A stretch of 64,000 bases of DNA from Bacteroidota bacterium (GTDB lineage Bacteria > Bacteroidota > Bacteroidia > Chitinophagales > Chitinophagaceae). Position numbers and translations under genes: made by a program. Location of the stretch: the NCBI GenBank assembly GCA_018267965.1, contig JAFDXK010000001.1:1195520-1259519 (forward strand), in the 5' to 3' direction. Under the pieces are notes generated by a model that was given only the letters and a program-made list of their open reading frames with translations, was not told the origin of the DNA and ran no database searches. Each line of letters begins with the position of its first letter. Position 1 is the first letter of the stretch. Shown in pieces: positions 150 through 60,171 of this stretch.

Positions 150-671
150 TTATTTAAGTCCCAATTTAGTTTTAACAGCAGGCAGCATATTGTCAGCATC
201 TTTTATTACCAACAATGAACCTAAGCTAACGTCAAACACATAATCAATAGCTTTTTCTTTAGCTACATCTTTGATAGCCTTGTCTGCTTTCTCCAGAATA
301 GGTTGATACAATTCCTGTTTTTTCTTCTCTACTTTTTCCTGTGCACTTTGATTGGTGCTTTCCATACGGCCTTGCAAATCGCGAATCTCTTTCTCTTTTA
401 CTTCTTTAACAGCATCGGTCATTGTTTTTTCACCTGCCTGGTATTCCTTTATTTTCTTTTCATATTCAGCCTGCATGGTTTGCAACTGATCTTGATATTG
501 TTTTGCGAATGCCTGCAAATCAGCATCAGCTTTGGTTACCTCAGGCATAGCTTTCAACAACTCACGAGAATCAATCCATGCGAATTTAGTCTGTGCAAAT
601 ACAGCGTTATTGATAAATAACCCAAGAGCAAGTAATACAACTAGTTTTTTCATTTTTAAGATATATGTCAT
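150..671 (-). CDS. OmpH/Skp family outer-membrane protein chaperone
   Basis: 173 aa with a signal peptide ending in AQ. The protein is Lys/Glu-rich and coiled-coil, typical of the Skp/OmpH family. It lies downstream of bamA, as in the conserved bamA-skp arrangement. Confidence 0.75.
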   Translation of the reverse strand: MTYILKMKKLVVLLALGLFINNAVFAQTKFAWIDSRELLKAMPEVTKADADLQAFAKQYQDQLQTMQAEYEKKIKEYQAGEKTMTDAVKEVKEKEIRDLQGRMESTNQSAQEKVEKKKQELYQPILEKADKAIKDVAKEKAIDYVFDVSLGSLLVIKDADNMLPAVKTKLGLK

Positions 672-702
672 TATTTTAATTAGGATTGCAAAGTAAATGC
701 CA

Positions 703-3943: not shown

Positions 3944-4697
3944 GATGCTGCGTATTCGTTTGGATTTGCTCACTGGTTTTGCCGAAGCGACGCTCGCGCT
4001 GTTGATAATTGAGCAGCGCTTCATATAGGTTTTGCTTTCTGAATGCAGGCCAGTGTACTGTTGTGAAATAAAGTTCGGCATATGCCAGTTGATATAGTAA
4101 GAAGTTGCTTATCCGGTATTCTCCACTGGTTCTTATCATCAATTCCGGGTCTGGGAAAGCAGCAGTATTTAAATATTTATGAAAAGTTGCGTCGTCTACA
4201 TCTTCGGGTTTCAACTTACCTTCAGCAGCATCGGCAACCATTTTTTTAGCAGCATCAATCATCTCCCACCTTGAGCTATAACTCAATGCCAATATCAGGT
4301 TCAAACCTGTATTAGCAGCGGTCATATCCATAGCTTCATTCAATTCATTTTGGCATACCTCAGGCAAACTAGCAAAGTCGCCGATAACGTGTAAACGAAC
4401 ATTATTCTTCTTCAGTTCATCCACCTCTTTGCGAATAGTATTCACCAGCAATTCCATCAAAGCATCTACTTCTGCTTTGGGACGATTCCAGTTTTCAGTA
4501 GAGAATGCATATAATGTGAGATACGAGATACCTATCTCTGCACAACCATTTACAATGTCCCTGACACTTTTCACACCCTCATAATGACCATACACCCTAT
4601 CCTGCCCGTGTTCTTTGGCCCAACGCCCGTTGCCATCCATAATAATGGCAATATGCTTAGGCAGCTTATTACGGTCAAGAGATTGCAAAATATCCAT
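3936..4697 (-). CDS. uppS: Isoprenyl transferase / undecaprenyl diphosphate synthase
   Basis: 253 aa with the IMDGNGRWA motif and an RTSGE...R C-terminal signature of cis-prenyltransferases. It sits immediately upstream of bamA. Confidence 0.9.
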   Translation of the reverse strand: MDILQSLDRNKLPKHIAIIMDGNGRWAKEHGQDRVYGHYEGVKSVRDIVNGCAEIGISYLTLYAFSTENWNRPKAEVDALMELLVNTIRKEVDELKKNNVRLHVIGDFASLPEVCQNELNEAMDMTAANTGLNLILALSYSSRWEMIDAAKKMVADAAEGKLKPEDVDDATFHKYLNTAAFPDPELMIRTSGEYRISNFLLYQLAYAELYFTTVHWPAFRKQNLYEALLNYQQRERRFGKTSEQIQTNTQHHA

Positions 4698-7357: not shown

Positions 7358-8065
7358 GTGTTGATTATGAAAGGGAAATTATACCTGATACCGATTCCAA
7401 TTGCTGAGAATGCTGTACACACGTTATCGGCAGAGATAATAACGCATACGCTCACTATTAAACATTATGTGGCAGAAAATGCGCGTACCGCCAGACGTTT
7501 TCTTAAGTCCATACATCCGTCATTAGTAATAGATGAGATACAATTCATAGAAATTGATAAACATGAAGGTGCTGATACTAAGACCTTTAAACAATGGCTG
7601 AAGGATGGTTTGACTGTTGGTGTAATGAGTGAAGCAGGATGTCCGGGAGTAGCAGACCCTGGTGCAGATATTGTGAGCATAGCGCAGGAGATGAACGCAG
7701 AGGTTATTCCACTAACAGGGCCTAACTCAATGACATTAGCGTTAATGGCTTCGGGACTAAATGGTCAGAGTTTTTGTTTTAATGGTTACCTGCCTATAAA
7801 AGAACCATTAAGAAGCCAAAAGATAAAAGCATTAGAGGCTCTATCTAAAAAAGAAAATCAAACACAGCTATTTATTGAAACACCTTACCGCAATAACCAA
7901 CTGTTAGATGAATTGATAAAAAACTGCAGTGGGGATACAAGACTATGCATTGCACTGAACATAAGCGCAACTGATGCGTTTATCAAAACAAAGAAAATAA
8001 ACGAATGGAAACAATCTAAACCTACATTAGAAAAAGCTCCTGCGGTATTTCTTTTATTGGCTTAG
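7358..8065 (+). CDS. SAM-dependent methyltransferase, tetrapyrrole-methylase/RsmI-like fold
   Basis: 235 aa. The LYLIPIPI...ENA N-terminus and the GCPGVADPG motif are typical of the RsmI/TP-methylase family. Confidence 0.65.
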   Translation: MLIMKGKLYLIPIPIAENAVHTLSAEIITHTLTIKHYVAENARTARRFLKSIHPSLVIDEIQFIEIDKHEGADTKTFKQWLKDGLTVGVMSEAGCPGVADPGADIVSIAQEMNAEVIPLTGPNSMTLALMASGLNGQSFCFNGYLPIKEPLRSQKIKALEALSKKENQTQLFIETPYRNNQLLDELIKNCSGDTRLCIALNISATDAFIKTKKINEWKQSKPTLEKAPAVFLLLA

Positions 8066-8463
8066 TAATTTATTGCCTTTACTTCGTCAATACGGTCTAC
8101 AATATATTGTCCTTTCTCCTGGTTGACCTTGTTGTAATTCTCACCACGCCATGGTAACACACCATGATACTGTATGTAGTGTAGTGTTACTAATTTACCA
8201 CCGCAACGTTCTAATGAATCGGCTATCTTCTCATCATTTACGCTGAAATAAAAATACTGCGCACTATATGCAGGACCTTGTTTGCCAAAGCCCAATAGAA
8301 TTATTTCGCCCTCGTATGTTTTGAACAGGTTGCCTTTGCGTGAGAACTTCTGCAAAATACCATCTCTTCTGCCATCGCTATAAGGATAATAATAAGTGAA
8401 GTATACATATCCTATCACGAACACAACCAGTACTGCAATACTAATAAATACAGCTTTTCGCAT
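8062..8463 (-). CDS. Hypothetical membrane-anchored protein
   Basis: 133 aa ORF with one N-terminal transmembrane helix and no recognisable family. It overlaps the upstream gene by 4 nt in convergent orientation. Confidence 0.4.
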   Translation of the reverse strand: MRKAVFISIAVLVVFVIGYVYFTYYYPYSDGRRDGILQKFSRKGNLFKTYEGEIILLGFGKQGPAYSAQYFYFSVNDEKIADSLERCGGKLVTLHYIQYHGVLPWRGENYNKVNQEKGQYIVDRIDEVKAINY

Positions 8464-8525
8464 AAAACAATTGTTTGCTTAAGATATGCATATCATACAA
8501 GATACCCCATATCTCGGTATGAAAT

Positions 8526-9662
8526 TTACTTTACCTTTCTGCCTTTCCATTTATACACACCAATAAACCCTAAAAAGCCTGCCAATACAATGTATATGAT
8601 ATGCAAAGGTTGCAAAAAAGGAAATATAATCAGCTGTTTTTCTTTTTTAAAGAACCTCGCAACAGGGTACAGATAGTCTAATTCGGTTATGGTCTTTACC
8701 ACCAAAGCTACTAATACCAACAACCAGTGTCCGGGTACAAATAACGCGTAAATAGTAAGTAATAGAATGGATAGATTGAACAGGTAAACCAGTAATAAGA
8801 TAGCTGTTAATCGTTTATCATTATACTTGCCCGATTTAGATGCCCAGCGTATTCGTTGCTGTAAAAAGTTGCTCCAGTCGGGTTGAGGAGCTGTTCTTAC
8901 AATAACTTCCTGTGATTTGAGATATGCAATACCATCGGGGTAAGCTTGTTTAATCTTCATCATCAGTAAATAATCGTCCCCAGATGCCAGATTATCTATG
9001 CCCTTATAGCCACCTACCCTATCATATACTTCTCGTGTGAAAGCAAGATTGGCACCATTGCTCATATTACCTAAGCCCAGCTTATGCGATGCAGCAGTGA
9101 TTCCCTGCATACTCATAAAATCTAAGGACTGAAACATCTGTACAACACTGCCATTGCTTGTAAAATCAACAGGTGCAACAATCATTGCAGGTTTTATTTC
9201 TTCGTATAATGCAGCTATATTTTTAAGCCAGTTTTGAGGCGCTACGCAATCTGCATCAGTAGTAATAATTAACTCACCGTTAGATATCGCAATAGCTTTT
9301 GAGAGTGCTAATTTTTTGTATGCAACTGTTTTTTCATCTGGAGAAATAACATCTGCCAGCTTAACAGATTTGATATAGGGATTATTAAACGCTTGCACTA
9401 CTCCTGCGGTATTATCAGTTGAATGATCATCAACAACTATCACTTCAAACAGATGCTTAGGATAGTCCTGAGCTATTATTGATTGCAGACATTTACCAAT
9501 ATTCTGTTCTTCATTACAGGCAGGAATAACAATACTGATTTTCGTTTTTGGTGTAAACCCTTGCTCTATCTCAAATACAGGTTGCGCAGACCATCCCCTG
9601 CGATATACCAACATGAGTATAGCATAGGCAATAACGAACGATATGGATATATAAGGTATCAC
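8526..9662 (-). CDS. Glycosyltransferase family 2 membrane protein
   Basis: 378 aa. An N-terminal TM helix is followed by ISIVIPACNEEQNI and DD/DAD motifs of GT2, with C-terminal TM helices. Confidence 0.75.
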   Translation of the reverse strand: MIPYISISFVIAYAILMLVYRRGWSAQPVFEIEQGFTPKTKISIVIPACNEEQNIGKCLQSIIAQDYPKHLFEVIVVDDHSTDNTAGVVQAFNNPYIKSVKLADVISPDEKTVAYKKLALSKAIAISNGELIITTDADCVAPQNWLKNIAALYEEIKPAMIVAPVDFTSNGSVVQMFQSLDFMSMQGITAASHKLGLGNMSNGANLAFTREVYDRVGGYKGIDNLASGDDYLLMMKIKQAYPDGIAYLKSQEVIVRTAPQPDWSNFLQQRIRWASKSGKYNDKRLTAILLLVYLFNLSILLLTIYALFVPGHWLLVLVALVVKTITELDYLYPVARFFKKEKQLIIFPFLQPLHIIYIVLAGFLGFIGVYKWKGRKVK

Positions 9663-47941: not shown

Positions 47942-48406
47942 TTATTCTGTTATTTGTTGTCTTATTTGTGATTCTAGTGCTTTAGCCCAGTTGATTACGG
48001 CTGTTTTTTCTGCATCGGTCAGAATAGCATCTTTATGAATCCATGTGTAAGAAGATAAAGGCATTTCATTCTTTTCAATCATTTTCACTACTTCTTCCAT
48101 CTTATGTGCCTGTTTCTTCTTTTTATACGTAGCGAATTCTGAAAAGTTGATTTCTTCTTTGCCTTCATTTATATGATTCTGCATCCATAAACCTACAGGT
48201 TGGATATTTGTGTACCACGGATAGCGCGTGTTATTGCTATGGCAATCATAACAAGCTTTTTTCAGAGTTTCATGCACGTCTGCAGGAACATTATACGCTG
48301 TGCTGATATCATTCACAGCAGCAGCATCTGATATATTTCTTGAGGGGCGGATAAATTGAAGAACGACAAAGAGTATTATTAACCCAATAAATATCTTCTT
48401 GAACAT
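47942..48406 (-). CDS. Haem-binding domain protein (CxxCH-containing)
   Basis: 154 aa with an N-terminal TM helix and a CYDCHSNNTRYPWY motif typical of the small haem-binding domain family. Confidence 0.6.
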   Translation of the reverse strand: MFKKIFIGLIILFVVLQFIRPSRNISDAAAVNDISTAYNVPADVHETLKKACYDCHSNNTRYPWYTNIQPVGLWMQNHINEGKEEINFSEFATYKKKKQAHKMEEVVKMIEKNEMPLSSYTWIHKDAILTDAEKTAVINWAKALESQIRQQITE

Positions 48407-52077: not shown

Positions 52078-52623
52078 ATGTTATTAAGTTATTTATTGAT
52101 GTTCAAACTATTATTTACAGCTGCACCAACGCCGAATCCTGATATACCTAAATCCATTTATGATTTTAAGGTTGCCGGGCTTACGGGAGGTACAATAGAC
52201 TTCTCCCAATTCAAAGGAAAGAAGATACTGATAGTAAATACAGCTTCTGAATGCGGATATACACCCCAATACGAAGGACTGGAACAACTGTATGAAAAAT
52301 ATAAAGACAAACTTGTTATAGTTGGTTTCCCAGCCAACAACTTTGGCTCACAAGAACCGGGAAGCAATGAAGAGATAGCCGGTTTTTGTAAAAAGAATTA
52401 TGGTGTTACCTTCCCTATGGCAGCTAAGATATCTGTAAAAGGAGATGACATGGCACCGATATATCATTGGCTTACTGAAAAACAATACAATGGCTTTGAC
52501 AACACCAGTGTAAAATGGAATTTTCAGAAATACCTTATCAATGAAAAAGGTGAACTGGTAGGGGTATTTTATTCTCCTGTTAAGCCGATGAGTAAAAAAT
52601 TAACAGAAGCAATAGAACAATAA
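52078..52623 (+). CDS. Glutathione peroxidase (Cys-type)
   Basis: 181 aa with NTASECGYT, FPANNFGSQEPG and WNFQKYLI motifs. Confidence 0.9.
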   Translation: MLLSYLLMFKLLFTAAPTPNPDIPKSIYDFKVAGLTGGTIDFSQFKGKKILIVNTASECGYTPQYEGLEQLYEKYKDKLVIVGFPANNFGSQEPGSNEEIAGFCKKNYGVTFPMAAKISVKGDDMAPIYHWLTEKQYNGFDNTSVKWNFQKYLINEKGELVGVFYSPVKPMSKKLTEAIEQ

Positions 52624-52646
52624 TTTTCTGCAATGAATAATATGAC

Positions 52647-52674
52647 AAAATCCCTCTCTTTGAGAGGGATTTTG
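52647..52674 (+). terminator. Rho-independent terminator after the glutathione peroxidase gene
   Basis: aaaatccctctc-tttg-agagggattttg. Confidence 0.7.
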
Positions 52675-52712
52675 CATTTACAAGATGTGTCCATCCATCT
52701 TGTGTTTTTTAA

Positions 52713-52967
52713 TTAATAACGCCACCTTCTACCATATCCTCTATGCCAGCAATGACGAGGCCTGCCATAATAACCATATCCGCCATAATAGCGTGGACGT
52801 GGAACGAATACCGGTGCAGGCACTACAATTCTTGGTATAGGTGGCGCCAGGAACACTCTATGTGGCCTGCAATGCCATCTTCCCCATCCTCTCGCATCTG
52901 CATTATTAAAAGAACTTACTACTAACATTACCGCCAATATCCCGGTAATCAAAAACCTGTTTCTCAT
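52713..52967 (-). CDS. Small secreted Arg/Tyr/Gly/Pro-rich protein
   Basis: 84 aa with a signal peptide. The mature part is extremely basic and aromatic (RGWGRWHCRPHR...YYGGYGYYGRPRHCWHRGYGRRWRY), shares a VPAPV motif with the neighbouring gene and has two Cys. Confidence 0.5.
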   Translation of the reverse strand: MRNRFLITGILAVMLVVSSFNNADARGWGRWHCRPHRVFLAPPIPRIVVPAPVFVPRPRYYGGYGYYGRPRHCWHRGYGRRWRY

Positions 52968-53016
52968 AACCTAATGTTTTCTATGAGACATCATTTGAAA
53001 TAAAAGGTTTAATACT

Positions 53017-53367
53017 TTATGGTAAAGGAGGATGCGGTGGTAATGGAGGGTGTGGTGGCAATGGCACATGGCGTGGTAAAGGAGGATGCGGTGGCACCGG
53101 CACATAACGAGGATGTGGAGGTACAGGTACTACTACCGTGCGTGGATGATGGTAGTAATACACCCTGCGTGGGTGATGATAATATACTCGAGCAGGAACC
53201 GGCGCAGGAACATATACAGTTCTGTAATGTCGCGGGTAATAATAATGATGATAATACCTTCTTTCGCGGCAGTTACCACGTCGCCCATGACCGGCAAAAG
53301 CAGAATCAATTGCTGTGGTGGTAAGCAATATTGCAAGTAGTATTGCTCCCATTATCTTGTTTTTCAT
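53017..53367 (-). CDS. Small secreted His/Pro/Tyr/Arg-rich repeat protein
   Basis: 116 aa with a signal peptide. The mature part is YYHH/PRHY-rich and ends in PPHPPLP repeats. The DNA carries a roughly 56-bp tandem duplication (ggtaaaggaggatgcggtgg at 53021 and 53077). Confidence 0.5.
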   Translation of the reverse strand: MKNKIMGAILLAILLTTTAIDSAFAGHGRRGNCRERRYYHHYYYPRHYRTVYVPAPVPARVYYHHPRRVYYYHHPRTVVVPVPPHPRYVPVPPHPPLPRHVPLPPHPPLPPHPPLP

Positions 53368-53442
53368 AACAATTCATTTTATGGTTCACAATCTATTTAG
53401 CACTAAATTAATACCACAGTTATTCTTGAATGCTATGAAATC

Positions 53443-53472
53443 TGTTAAAATAAAATAGCGCCCGTACAAGGC
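53443..53472 (-). terminator. Rho-independent terminator downstream of the biotin carboxylase gene
   Basis: tagcgcc-cgtacaa-ggcgcta hairpin. The reverse complement is followed by ttttatttt. Confidence 0.6.
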
Positions 53473-53506
53473 GCTATAAATAATAATGTTACGATTAATT
53501 AATAAT

Positions 53507-54988
53507 CTATCTGCGTCTTAGTTTCCAGTTGCTCACTTGTATAGTTGAGGTAGTGGCAGTTACATTTTTTTGCTTGCTGCTATTCCATATTTCTGCAGCA
53601 AGTAATGATGCAATTTCTTCAGCTTCAGGATTCTCTTCAACCAGGTATTCAGGCTTGAAATATTTATCAATGAATTTCGTATCAAAATTTCCGGAACGGA
53701 ATTGTTCTGTTCTAACAGCCCATTTACCAAAGCTCAGTGTTGTTTGTATACCCTTGATATGATATTCATCAATTGCCCTGCAAAGCCTGTCAATGGCTTC
53801 ATCTCTGGTTGCTGCATGCACCACCAATTTAGCAATCATAGGGTCGTAGAATATAGGAATATCCTGTCCCTGCTCATAACCATCATCTACACGTACACCC
53901 GGACCTTTAGGGGGCTGGTACATTTCCAGTTTACCGGTATCAGGTAAAAAATTATTCATCGGGTCTTCGGCACAAACACGCAACTCTAATGAGTGGCCGT
54001 TTATTTTTAAATCATCCTGAGAGAATGATAATTTATTACCACGTGCTACATTGATTTGTTCTTTCACAAGGTCTATGCCTGTTATCATTTCTGTTACGCA
54101 ATGCTCTACCTGCAAACGGGTATTCATTTCAAGGAAATAGAAATTCAGATTTTCATCTACAAGAAATTCAACCGTTCCTGCACCATAATAATTACATGAA
54201 CGAGCAACAGCAACCGCACTTTCGCCCATCGCCTTACGAATATCAACAGTAAGGCAGCTTGACGGTGCTTCTTCAACCAATTTCTGATGCCTGCGTTGTA
54301 TAGAACATTCTCTTTCGAAAAGATATACGTAGTTGCCATGCTGGTCACCTACCAGTTGAATTTCTACGTGACGTGGTGCTCCAACATATTTTTCAATAAA
54401 CACCGCATCATCACCAAATGCACTCATCGCTTCGCTCTTAGCAGTACGCATCTGCTCTTCCAGTTCCTCTTCGTTATTTACAACCCTCATTCCTTTACCA
54501 CCACCGCCAGCAGATGCTTTTATCAAAATAGGATAACCTATACGTGATGCAATTGTTTTTGCCTCAGCAGCATCTTTAATCGGGTCTTCTGTACCGGGCA
54601 CCATTGGTACATTGAATTTTTTAGCTGCCTGCTTTGCAGCTATTTTACTACCCATCATTTCGATAGACCTGGCAGAAGGTCCTATGAATATCAAACCTGC
54701 ATCAGCAACTGCTTTAGAAAAGCTTGCATTCTCACTTAAGAAGCCATAACCCGGGTGGATGGCATCTGCACCTGTTTCTTTTGCTACCTGTATTATTTTA
54801 TCTGCGCGAAGGTAAGATTGTGATGAAGGTGCAGGACCAATGCAAACTGCTTCGTCTGCATACCTTACAAAAGGCATATTTCTGTCAGCTTCTGAAAAAA
54901 CAGCTACGGTTTTAATACCCATCTCTTTTGCAGTACGCATTACACGCAAAGCAATCTCGCCACGATTGGCAACCAATATTTTTTGCAT
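53507..54988 (-). CDS. accC: Biotin carboxylase (acetyl-CoA carboxylase subunit AccC type)
   Basis: 493 aa with MQKILVANRGEIALR, an ATP-grasp domain and a biotin carboxylase C-terminal domain. No adjacent BCCP gene. Confidence 0.8.
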   Translation of the reverse strand: MQKILVANRGEIALRVMRTAKEMGIKTVAVFSEADRNMPFVRYADEAVCIGPAPSSQSYLRADKIIQVAKETGADAIHPGYGFLSENASFSKAVADAGLIFIGPSARSIEMMGSKIAAKQAAKKFNVPMVPGTEDPIKDAAEAKTIASRIGYPILIKASAGGGGKGMRVVNNEEELEEQMRTAKSEAMSAFGDDAVFIEKYVGAPRHVEIQLVGDQHGNYVYLFERECSIQRRHQKLVEEAPSSCLTVDIRKAMGESAVAVARSCNYYGAGTVEFLVDENLNFYFLEMNTRLQVEHCVTEMITGIDLVKEQINVARGNKLSFSQDDLKINGHSLELRVCAEDPMNNFLPDTGKLEMYQPPKGPGVRVDDGYEQGQDIPIFYDPMIAKLVVHAATRDEAIDRLCRAIDEYHIKGIQTTLSFGKWAVRTEQFRSGNFDTKFIDKYFKPEYLVEENPEAEEIASLLAAEIWNSSKQKNVTATTSTIQVSNWKLRRR

Positions 54989-58574: not shown

Positions 58575-59297
58575 ATGGAAACAGGATATAGTGTTTTACT
58601 CTTTCTCATAACACTCATTGGTAGTACCATACCCCTGTTTATCAAGGGCTTTGACGATAAACGCATGTTGAGCCTGCTGGCTTTCTCAGGTTCATTTTTG
58701 CTGAGTATCACCTTTCTTCATTTATTACCCGAAACATTTGGTGAGTTAAATGCAAGAGCGGGTGTCTACATTCTAATCGGCTTTTTTCTGCAATTGGCAT
58801 TACAACGCCTTACTCATGGTATAGAACATGGGCATGTGCATCATTCGTCAGACCATCATCATGTTCCGGTTATTTCGGTTATTGCCGGCCTCACATTACA
58901 TGCCGTAATGGAGGGATTACCGTTGGGTTTTAACTATAGGATGGCTTCAACTACTCCTTCACTTTACCTGGCTGTTGCTGCTCATAAATTACCCGAATCT
59001 GTTCTGGCTGCTATGCTCATCAATTCAGTGAAAGGAAAAAAAGTGGCATTTATCACCATGTGCTTTTTTTCATTGGTAACACCGCTATCCGGAATGTTAG
59101 CAAATAAGCTAGGTACAAGTTACCATGCCATGAGCAACGCAATTACTGTAGTGATACCAATAGTTGCAGGTGCATTTATACATATAGCAACAACCATATT
59201 TTTTGAAAGCGGTACTAAAAACCATTTGCTCACATGGCAAAAATTAGCAGCCATGCTTGCAGGCGTAGGCGCTGCTTTAACCACCTTATTATTCTAA
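58575..59297 (+). CDS. ZIP family metal (zinc) transporter
   Basis: 240 aa with 8 predicted TM helices, a His-rich cytoplasmic loop (HGHVHHSSDHHH) and an HAVMEGL metal-binding motif. Confidence 0.8.
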   Translation: METGYSVLLFLITLIGSTIPLFIKGFDDKRMLSLLAFSGSFLLSITFLHLLPETFGELNARAGVYILIGFFLQLALQRLTHGIEHGHVHHSSDHHHVPVISVIAGLTLHAVMEGLPLGFNYRMASTTPSLYLAVAAHKLPESVLAAMLINSVKGKKVAFITMCFFSLVTPLSGMLANKLGTSYHAMSNAITVVIPIVAGAFIHIATTIFFESGTKNHLLTWQKLAAMLAGVGAALTTLLF

Positions 59298-59304
59298 AAA
59301 AACT

Positions 59305-60171
59305 ATGCGCCTCATCCAGACTATTCTTCTGTGTTTATATATCACATCTTCGTTTTTAGGCTATAGTCAAACAAAAGAGGAGAATTCCTTACTATGGAAA
59401 ATCAGCAGGAAAGACATGAAATCTGCTTCCTACTTATTTGGCACTATACACCTGATATGTAAAGAGGACTACGTATGGACAAAACCTATGCAAGCAGGTT
59501 TATCTGACTGCAAAGAAATATGTTTCGAACTGGACCTTGATGACCCTAACATGATGATGGAGGTAGCAAAAGGAATGATAAGTACTGATGGCAAATCACT
59601 TAAAGACTATTTTTCAGATTCAGATTATGTATTGCTCACCAAGTATGTGAAAGACAGCCTGAAAATGGATATTTCTTTGTTTCAGCAGATGAAGCCGGTG
59701 GCTCTTGAAACCTTATTTGCCTCCAGCAGTCCGTCATGCGAATCCCCGCAATCGTATGAGAATAACATCATGCAGATAGCACAAAAGTCGAATAGAGAAA
59801 TAACAGGGCTGGAAAGTGTTAGCGAACAACTTGACCTGTTTGATAACCTGCCTGCAGATAGTGTAGTCAAAGACATTATGTCTGTAATAAAAGGCAAACA
59901 AGACGATAAATCTGAATATCGAAAAATGGTTACTGCATATAAGAAACAAGATTTGCAGCAACTTTATAAGCTCATATCCGAATCCGAGCAAATTGACAAA
60001 GAACTCAGCAGTTTCCTGGATGTAAGAAACGAAAAATGGATTCCCCGCATCATAGAGAAAATGGATAGGACATCCGTTTTCTTTGCTGTAGGTGCAGGAC
60101 ACCTACCCGGCAAAAATGGTGTTATAGCTTTATTGAGAAAAGCAGGCTATACTGTTACTCCTGTAAAATAA
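59305..60171 (+). CDS. TraB/GumN family protein
   Basis: 288 aa with a signal peptide and the LLWKIS...YLFGTIH N-terminal motif of the TraB/GumN family. Confidence 0.75.
   Translation: MRLIQTILLCLYITSSFLGYSQTKEENSLLWKISRKDMKSASYLFGTIHLICKEDYVWTKPMQAGLSDCKEICFELDLDDPNMMMEVAKGMISTDGKSLKDYFSDSDYVLLTKYVKDSLKMDISLFQQMKPVALETLFASSSPSCESPQSYENNIMQIAQKSNREITGLESVSEQLDLFDNLPADSVVKDIMSVIKGKQDDKSEYRKMVTAYKKQDLQQLYKLISESEQIDKELSSFLDVRNEKWIPRIIEKMDRTSVFFAVGAGHLPGKNGVIALLRKAGYTVTPVK

Follow-up and report, generated by a model that had tools for sequence, protein, structure and literature searches.

Do two short open reading frames (ORFs) of extreme, low-complexity composition that lie side by side on a Bacteroidota contig represent genuine genes, and if so, what kind of proteins do they encode? 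The stretch of DNA analyzed here (hereafter the window) comprises 64,000 nucleotides from contig JAFDXK010000001.1 of a metagenome-assembled genome (MAG; assembly GCA_018267965.1) of an uncultured, soil-type bacterium. An earlier note, made from the letters of the window only, had pointed to an adjacent pair of minus-strand ORFs of 84 and 116 amino acids (aa), and the pair was recovered with identical positions and sequences: ORF2 (53017..53367, 116 aa), which has syntenic homologues downstream of accC, is followed by ORF1 (52713..52967, 84 aa). Together they are a two-gene unit of a Flavipsychrobacter-like Chitinophagaceae MAG, and its accC is most similar to those of a Flavipsychrobacter sp. 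MAG (86%) and of Chitinophagaceae MAGs. Very probably, ORF2 and ORF1 belong to an exported, polycationic, and foldless protein family that comprises two subtypes, is under selection, occupies the slot downstream of accC, and resembles the PXPV proteins at the profile level.

Related loci were collected from genome and metagenome collections by way of the accC gene (in the window, 54988..53507 on the minus strand, upstream of ORF2, encoding a biotin carboxylase of 493 aa for fatty-acid synthesis), and the contigs of protein matches were added. Small basic ORFs with a signal peptide directly follow accC in loci L002, L003, L084, L086/L168, L087, L163, L166, and L167, usually ahead of a convergent glutathione peroxidase gene (gpx); L003 is cut by a contig end, and the non-redundant list holds nine loci of Flavipsychrobacter-like Chitinophagaceae including the window. 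Homologues of the ORF2 type occupy this position in L002, L084, L086, L163, L166, and L167. The gene order of L166 and L168 equals that of the window, namely DUF983 (seen in L166), accC, the small genes, gpx, and the genes for a Big_5 lipoprotein, an S9 peptidase, and a Haem_bd protein, and the slot contains 0, 1, or 2 family genes per locus. We also applied a six-frame composition filter (signal peptide, at least 50% R/K/H/Y/P/W, at least 20% basic and less than 10% acidic residues) to about 1.1 Mb of DNA from the related loci and the window, which returned ORFs of the accC-downstream slot only. The ORF pair is beyond chance.

The substitution patterns speak for selection at the protein level. 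Between L001 and L002, a near-identical orthologue pair, the ORF2-type gene shows 14 synonymous versus 5 nonsynonymous changes (ratio of nonsynonymous to synonymous rates, dN/dS, 0.11 according to Nei-Gojobori; binomial p = 1.5e-5), whereas its fully open antisense frame would carry 2 synonymous versus 16 nonsynonymous changes. On these latter counts, the two antisense ORFs that overlap ORF2 on the plus strand (101 aa and 84 aa) were rejected as genes. The ORF1-type gene differs by 12 synonymous versus 2 nonsynonymous changes between L086b and L169 (p = 2.8e-6) and by 7 versus 2 between L086 and L168. Across species, ORF2-type proteins share 32-44% identity, compared to 80-88% for accC of the same loci. 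As judged from these comparisons, the family is fast-evolving, yet under purifying selection.

We therefore regard it as hardly credible that the ORFs are low-complexity artefacts or young genes devoid of function. Such a reading could draw on the absence of ORF2, with either start codon, from a collection of 15 billion proteins, on the long antisense ORFs that overlap it, and on the lack of the family in some close relatives. But loci whose accC genes differ by 12-20% have retained the ORF together with its length, its signal peptide, and its order of segments, the strong synonymous excess is found in the sense frame only, and the unit is equipped with terminators of its own and with upstream motifs that are conserved. 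The composition filter and the synonymous excess largely refute this explanation. The earlier note had named absence or lack of conservation in close relatives as the mark of an artefact; synteny and purifying selection point the other way, and the two ORFs stand as genuine genes.

Both proteins carry a Sec-type signal peptide, as read from their N-termini: a K/R-containing n-region is followed by a hydrophobic h-region and an AXA-type signal peptidase I site. The signal peptide comprises residues 1-25 in ORF2 (MKNKIMGAILLAILLTTTAIDSAFA, then GHG; 53293..53367, minus strand) as well as in ORF1 (MRNRFLITGILAVMLVVSSFNNADA, then RGW; 52893..52967, minus strand), with predicted cleavage between SAFA and GHG and between NADA and RGW, respectively. 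The same sequence features (charged n-region, h-region of at least 10 residues, AXA at -3/-1) were read in 12/12 close members, and many family members have Gln at position +1 of the predicted site. In AlphaFold models, the only helix of ORF2 spans residues 2-25, that is, the signal peptide, and the helices of ORF1 are restricted to residues 2-21 and 23-26; beyond the signal segment neither model contains secondary structure, at predicted template modeling (pTM) scores of 0.23-0.24. The signal peptides proposed in the earlier note are thus borne out by the n/h/c regions, the AXA sites, and the modeled helix, and the mature chains are predicted to be disordered, without a globular fold.

If cleaved, mature ORF2 would be 91 residues long and consist of P (28.6%), R, H, and Y (14.3% each), and V (13.2%), which together make up 85%, without any K or D (net charge about +13, isoelectric point [pI] 10.5). 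Mature ORF1, 59 residues in length, is composed of R (22%), P (15%), G (14%), Y (12%), H (7%), and W (7%), again with a net charge of about +13 (pI 11.5). The long ORFs of the window, which served as background, contain 3.9% R, 1.9% H, 4.7% Y, and 3.8% P, so the composition is indeed as extreme as had been noted. The pI lies between 9.7 and 11.8 in 12/12 close members, which contain 0-4 acidic residues each, while K, R, and H swap between them. His accounts for 6-19% of the mature part in every family member. A lipobox (L-x-x-C) is present in neither window ORF, and no Cys lies in or ends the signal peptide; P0006 is the only member with an atypical LLLC. Searches with Pfam and NCBIfam likewise returned no match in the window ORFs to a C-terminal sorting domain of the type IX secretion system (T9SS; about 80 aa, e.g., TIGR04183), and the mature chains of 59-91 aa are of low complexity up to the C-terminus. 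The lipoprotein route was therefore ruled out by the missing lipobox and the T9SS route by the lack of a sorting-domain match in these short low-complexity chains. Basic-aromatic C-termini were observed in window ORF1 (…RRWRY), L087 (…YRRW), L086a (…FHRW), P0030 (…GRRW), and P0090 (…RRFGW); it is conceivable from these sequences that such an end is recognized, for instance by a PDZ protease.

The family falls into two subtypes that differ in the order of segments behind the signal peptide. In ORF2-type proteins, a block rich in H/Y/K/R is followed by V/P (PXPV-like) units and a PP[HR]PPL tail; window ORF2 itself has an R/H/Y block, the V/P core, and a PPHPPL tail, and it is joined by P0001/P0003, P0006 (=L084), L086a, P0004, P0007, P0008, P0011, and P0016. 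ORF1-type proteins begin with a short GW/C block, followed by V/P units and an R/Y/G tail, often with RRW at its end. Here, window ORF1 (GW..C block, V/P core, R/Y/G/W tail with a final RRWRY) is accompanied by L087 (phmmer 1e-9), L086b (=P0005), and L163 8945-9316. Both subtypes occur in L086/L168, with the gene order of the window, and in L163, where they are 3.5 kb apart.

From a VPAPV core shared by both ORFs, the earlier note had concluded that they arose by duplication. The motif is indeed found in both, but the case for paralogy is weak. Pairwise similarity between ORF1 and ORF2 is significant over the signal-peptide region only (E 2e-5, residues 1-34). A profile of the ORF2 type reached window ORF1 at E 0.027 (3804 ORFs searched) and a profile of the ORF1 type reached window ORF2 at E 5e-5, but once the signal peptides were removed, neither of the mature-only profiles detected the other subtype. 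A common origin of ORF1 and ORF2 is plausible because of the similar signal peptides, the shared order of segments, and one short P-x-P-V unit, and the duplication, if there was any, would be older than the species compared. A further tandem pair of small exported proteins was observed in L170 (3616-5336), 3' of a gene for a DUF6089 outer-membrane beta-barrel; one protein has 95 aa and contains the block RRYHKRHYRHHRKRHYHHKRY, the other is the 111-aa protein P0012. Paired small exported genes may be a recurring arrangement.

The proline-rich tail of ORF2 is encoded by a tandem DNA repeat (53020..53094, minus strand). This repeat had been described as roughly 56 bp long, but it actually consists of 18 bp in 4.2 copies (or 36 bp in 1.9 copies; Tandem Repeats Finder, period 18, score 80), and the 56-bp unit results from two exact 21-nt copies (53020-53040 and 53074-53094) that lie 54 bp apart. 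The encoded sequence reads PPHPPL / PRHVPL / PPHPPL / PPHPPL plus P. In the AlphaFold model, this tail is predicted to be extended, without secondary structure (predicted local distance difference test, pLDDT, 80-91). The suspected length variation was found between species, with four PP[HR]PPL units in window ORF2 and zero to three in its relatives, but not between two near-identical strain pairs.

We next turn to the relation of the two proteins to known families. Searches against Pfam, NCBIfam, PHROGs, PADLOC, and PDB sequences did not place either window ORF in any family, and the previous statement that no family is recognizable holds for such curated libraries. The only match in the PDB, to the proline-rich linker of a pseudomurein endoisopeptidase (E 0.0013), was set aside as a matter of composition. 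Single-sequence searches returned one homologue each for ORF1 and ORF2, and a profile was needed to get beyond these. When plasmids were searched by tblastn, neither ORF2 nor a PXPV-type relative had a match, but the low-complexity filter probably blinds this search. With an alignment of the family, an exhaustive hidden Markov model (HMM) search of 1.84e9 proteins retrieved 115 at E<=1e-3, including 9 at E<=1e-10. Nearly all of these 115 proteins of a wider class are 76-148 aa long and align from the signal peptide onward. Their layout comprises the signal peptide, a His-rich block with R/W/Y (often also D/E), P-x-P-V/Y repeats, and often a hydrophobic end of the type 'GINLVIPLxxR'.

The PXPV repeat model PF12778 (22 positions, gathering score 23.1 bits) matches 13/113 wider-class members, 3 of them above the gathering score (P0031, P0065, and P0079, with 27.7-33.9 bits). 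It did not match the window ORFs even at E<=10; these contain one or two degenerate P-x-P-V units, VPAPVPARV in ORF2 and VPAPVFVPRP in ORF1. When the close family was aligned to PXPV-type proteins with hhalign, the probability was 98% (E 2.8e-14), the match being confined to signal peptide, His block, and first V/P unit and partly compositional. Like the window ORFs, the uncharacterized and mostly proteobacterial PXPV proteins are about 100 aa long and combine a signal peptide with a His/Arg/aromatic block and P-x-P-V/Y units, one of which corresponds to the 'VPAPV' of the window ORFs. Unlike them, the window ORFs lack the hydrophobic C-terminal 'GINLVIPLxxR' and end in PPHPPL repeats or an R/Y/G/W tail, and their charge is polycationic throughout, in contrast to the acidic His/Asp/Glu blocks of many PXPV proteins. 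At the level of sequence, we regard the window genes as a new branch close to the PXPV class, but not as members of it.

Resemblances to other families are more distant. The NCBIfam model VPA0510 (NF052668) weakly matches 20/113 wider-class members, a mere resemblance with a best score of 26.5 bits against a cut-off of 95, and does not match the window ORFs at E<=10. RcnB/CigR models gave weak N-terminal low-complexity matches in 6/113 wider-class members and none in the window ORFs, which do not contain an RcnB domain. The Spy/CpxP/ZraP family (PF13801, LTXXQ) had no Pfam match among the window ORFs, and their AlphaFold models contain no helix outside the signal peptide. Spy/CpxP/ZraP, RcnB/CigR, and SilE/PcoE are likewise small, Sec-exported, stress-linked envelope proteins, some with His-rich disordered segments, and wider-class members show weak compositional matches to PF13801 and to the CigR/VPA0510 models, none of which reaches the cut-off; but Spy, CpxP, and ZraP are helical, whereas the window ORFs have no predicted helices in the mature part, no RcnB domain, and no Met/His motifs. 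For sulfur globule proteins (PF17228), the best matches among family and class members (E 0.023-0.45) are far below the cut-off, and no sulfur-oxidation genes lie near the window ORFs. A literature search on PXPV or VPA0510 proteins yielded nothing relevant, and one on Flavipsychrobacter and on His-rich periplasmic disordered proteins gave no direct lead. In composition, size, charge, and foldlessness, the window proteins are similar to cationic His-, Pro-, or Arg-rich peptides of eukaryotes such as histatin-5, PR-39/Bac5, mussel foot protein 3 (mfp-3), and the His-Pro-rich region of histidine-rich glycoprotein. These peptides are not homologous and act in other organisms and in a compartment other than the diderm periplasm, and neither DOPA chemistry nor processing nor a route out of the cell is evident for the window proteins.

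The regions upstream of the family genes provide a possible link to stress regulation. Canonical sigma-54 promoters contain GG at -24 and GC at -12 (TGGCAC-N5-TTGCW), and most family genes are preceded, 44-61 nt before the ATG, by a -24/-12 box of this type (TGGYAR-N5-TTGY). Canonical boxes were found for L087 (TGGCAAGCATTTTGCA, 4029-4043), for the ORF1-type gene of L163 (TGGCAAACCTTTTGCT, 8894-8908), and for L086b (TGGCAAACTATTTGCC) and L086a (TGGTAAGGACTTTGCA), each of the latter two at one of the two L086 positions 4078-4092 or 4475-4489. Near-canonical boxes with TTGT or TTGA variants are present in L002, L163, L167, and L164, and L084 has a weaker sigma-54-like box. The pattern TGGYA-N6-TTG occurs in 8/13 family upstream regions compared to 9/880 upstream regions of long ORFs from the same loci, although orthologous upstream regions are not independent and motif p-values are therefore optimistic. 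Several of the nine background matches precede other exported proteins that are encoded right after accC in more distant Bacteroidota. In this group, the gene directly after accC encodes an exported protein of about 205 aa in L018 (4584), L024 (4630), L041 (4576), and L017 (4636), and a TGGCA-N6-TTGA box was observed before it in L018, L024, and L041.

In the window itself, the putative promoter region of the ORF2-ORF1 unit (53401..53449, minus strand) was delimited by the upstream alignment and the motif positions. It starts, just after the accC terminator, with a TTTAAC block (53449-53444, minus strand) that is invariant upstream of ORF2-type genes. Further downstream, a degenerate sigma-54-like box, TGGTAT-TAATT-TAGTG (53416-53401, minus strand), combines an intact GG with a poor -12 element, and it is overlapped by a sigmaA-like -7 box (TAATTTAG, 53410-53403, minus strand). 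The skp/ompH gene of the window (653..152, minus strand; PF03938, E 1e-29) served as an internal positive control: a canonical sigma-54-type box (TGGCATTTACTTTGC, 688-702, minus strand) is located about 35 nt upstream of its ATG. This suggests that sigma-54 serves stress genes of the envelope and of proteostasis in the source MAG. In Flavobacterium psychrophilum, the sigma-54 regulon (motif SM4) includes chaperones, Skp, and 'exported proteins of unknown function' behind -24/-12 boxes (PMC9723704), and heat-shock genes across Bacteroidota are preceded by sigma-54 promoters (PMC12316311). With a box before skp, the window agrees with that regulon. The likeness of our family to the exported proteins of F. 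psychrophilum lies in export and in the promoter boxes, and the box of window ORF2 is degenerate. Judging from these motifs, a stress-type promoter is probable in the relatives, and the link of the family to the sigma-54 stress regulon is suggestive.

What, then, could such proteins do? After Sec export and presumed cleavage by signal peptidase I, the mature proteins would remain in the envelope, given that they lack a lipobox and a C-terminal domain for the T9SS and have no exporter of their own. Their effect would come from composition rather than from folding: with Arg, protonatable His, and Tyr/Trp displayed on a stiff backbone of proline and valine, they could provide multivalent binding of low specificity to anionic envelope surfaces, such as phospholipid head groups, peptidoglycan, and lipopolysaccharide, and the His-rich block could make this binding tunable by pH or divalent metal. 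Since sigma-54-type boxes precede most relatives and sigma-54 drives a proteostasis and envelope-stress regulon in Bacteroidota, the proteins may be expressed as part of a stress response, and the family would then represent a stress-induced stabilizer or protectant of the envelope. A role as polycations of the envelope, with anionic surfaces or metal ions (or both) as binding partners, is the most likely mechanism among those considered, a tentative one that we infer from composition and context. As an overall explanation, the gene-family facts combined with this envelope mechanism serve best, with somewhat less than an even chance of being right as a whole.

Several observations weigh against this envelope mechanism or the facts it builds on. 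The genomic context did not reveal a binding partner. The family is dispensable: the accC-downstream slot of L083, whose accC is 90% identical, holds a ZIP gene instead of a small family ORF, and the slot of L088/L089 is likewise without a family gene. The likeness to the PXPV class is in part due to the signal peptide and composition, and the His-rich block of the wider class is often acidic as well, so the polycationic charge is not a common feature there and a metal role would fit better. Besides the dependence among orthologous upstream regions mentioned above, only a degenerate -24/-12 box precedes window ORF2, and a sigmaA promoter may serve instead. A more far-reaching version, in which sigma-54-induced, Sec-exported foldless polycations constitute a new class of Bacteroidota envelope effectors, a periplasmic protectant or glue, seems unlikely to us. 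One possibility would be an ATP-independent periplasmic 'holdase', by analogy to Hero or LEA proteins; another would be a cation-pi glue or condensate, switched by pH or metal, that links peptidoglycan to membranes in this phylum, which has no Braun's lipoprotein.

A competing explanation, a periplasmic metal buffer or sponge whose His-rich (plus Tyr/Cys) blocks would serve as low-affinity, high-capacity ligands of Zn, Cu, or Ni, comparable to SilE/PcoE, ZraP, and the His-rich loops of ZnuA and RcnA, is a possibility of minor but appreciable weight. Periplasmic His-rich disordered segments are usually metal ligands, and the His share of every mature family member is well above the 1.9% of the background. 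In the wider class, the N-terminal block combines His with Asp/Glu/Trp and weakly matches His-rich parts of DmeF, RcnA, ZnuA, CzcI, UreE, ZrgA, and PF13801, but these matches are compositional and far below the family cut-offs. The ORF1-type gene of L163 (123 aa) is divergent from a set encoding an ArsR-type HTH_5 regulator, AHSA1, and DoxX (7743-9316), which weakly hints, at this one locus, at the sensing of metal or stress; however, a conserved linkage to metal transporters or sensors was not found, and the position of the ZIP gene varies. Moreover, His positions are not conserved, with His being swapped for Lys and Arg between orthologues, the net charge of +13 disfavors the binding of cations, ATCUN or HExxH motifs are absent, and the number of Cys residues is inconsistent (0-3). 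The upstream boxes are of the sigma-54 type; Zur/Fur-type operators were sought by eye only, in the upstream regions.

Structural, adhesive, or condensate-forming matrix proteins, held together by cation-pi 'stickers' of Arg/Tyr/Gly/Trp and possibly by Tyr cross-links, would be analogous to mfp-3, sulfur-globule proteins, and the Bacillus spore coat proteins CotC/CotG. The tail of ORF1 (YYGGYGYYGRPRHCWHRGYGRRWRY) is mfp-3-like in composition, the chains are predicted to be disordered and multivalent, and PF17228 has weak matches in 3/113 wider-class members. But these matches fall far short of the threshold, conservation of the G/Y tail does not extend across the family, and a route across the outer membrane is not evident; nor is a tyrosinase or peroxidase partner linked, the adjacent glutathione peroxidase gene being convergent and its product cytoplasmic in type. 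We consider this function distinctly improbable. Still fainter are the prospects of secreted cationic peptides for antimicrobial action or competition, which would have to be released by outer-membrane vesicles or lysis. The mature parts would fit in composition and size, with a histatin-like N-terminal block and tails that resemble the proline/arginine-rich PR-39 and Bac5 or the Trp/Arg-rich indolicidin, and fast evolution and variable copy and repeat numbers are seen in conflict genes as well. The Sec signal peptide, however, delivers the protein into the periplasm of the producer itself, and no exporter, immunity, or processing gene is found nearby. The stable position among housekeeping genes, a short-range dN/dS of 0.1 without a sign of positive selection, and the lack of PADLOC or PHROGs matches also speak against this role.

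With respect to the layout of the locus, the two genes are separated from their neighbors on both sides. An intrinsic-terminator-like hairpin between accC and ORF2 (53455..53477, minus strand; 9-bp stem followed by a T run in the terminator scan) closes the accC transcript, and a hairpin with a T run between accC and the small genes is also found in L002, L084, and L086. An operon with accC was ruled out, given this terminator and the conserved upstream block in between. The terminator scan revealed a second hairpin 3' of ORF1 (52645..52675, minus strand), a perfect inverted repeat of 13 bp (52646-52674) that can terminate both strands, that is, the ORF2-ORF1 unit and the convergent gpx gene downstream of ORF1 (52078..52623, PF00255). 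Because the 49-nt gap between ORF2 and ORF1 is free of hairpins, the two genes are probably co-transcribed in the source genome. An Rfam scan of the region returned nothing near threshold. ORF1 is identical to MBS1772388.1, annotated as 'MAG: hypothetical protein JST82_05985 [Bacteroidetes bacterium]' and encoded on a contig of 1.27 Mb, and is present in the protein collection from which ORF2 is missing. ORF2 was therefore probably not called in the deposited annotation of this MAG. The exact sequences of both ORFs had no match in the contig index.

The metal-related neighbors to which the earlier note had drawn attention, a ZIP transporter gene (58575-59297), 5.2 kb away on the far side of accC, and a Haem_bd domain gene (47942-48406), do lie within about 5 kb. 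Nothing ties them to the pair: uvrC, DUF983, and other genes intervene on the side of the ZIP gene, whose position varies in relatives. A link to either gene was ruled out on synteny. The ZIP gene and a TraB/GumN gene directly follow accC in L083 (4111-5713), the closest relative by accC, and lie 3.6 kb upstream of accC in the window (58575-60171), which indicates local rearrangement between close relatives. In L166, an additional small exported protein of 111 aa (2206-2541), with a signal peptide, a K/E/Q/R-rich mature part, and Cys near both ends, is encoded between accC and the ORF2-type gene. In other Chitinophagaceae (L004 3255-3521, L085 4063-4353), the slot is filled by a different protein of 88-96 aa, which is acidic and His-rich, has repeated 'DFPLSGG' motifs, and lacks a signal peptide. 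Genes for small secreted proteins seem to have a hotspot in the gap between accC and gpx.

Small exported low-complexity proteins are commonly skipped or labeled 'hypothetical', and ORF2 itself seems to be outside the public protein collection. The ORF pair shows that such genes can form a conserved and selected family with a recognizable architecture. Restricted to one lineage and fast-evolving, this family branches off an unstudied class of small, secreted proteins of low complexity, and it has a link to a much larger group of His/Pro-rich secreted proteins of about 100 aa from several phyla. It is a worthwhile annotation and a reasonable experimental target, which for specialists would hold no surprise without functional data. 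Should no envelope role exist, the result remains an annotation correction. But if these proteins do serve in envelope stabilization, metal buffering, or stress protection, they would be a fold-independent addition to the envelope-stress response of the Bacteroidota, which runs on sigma-54 and is still poorly mapped.

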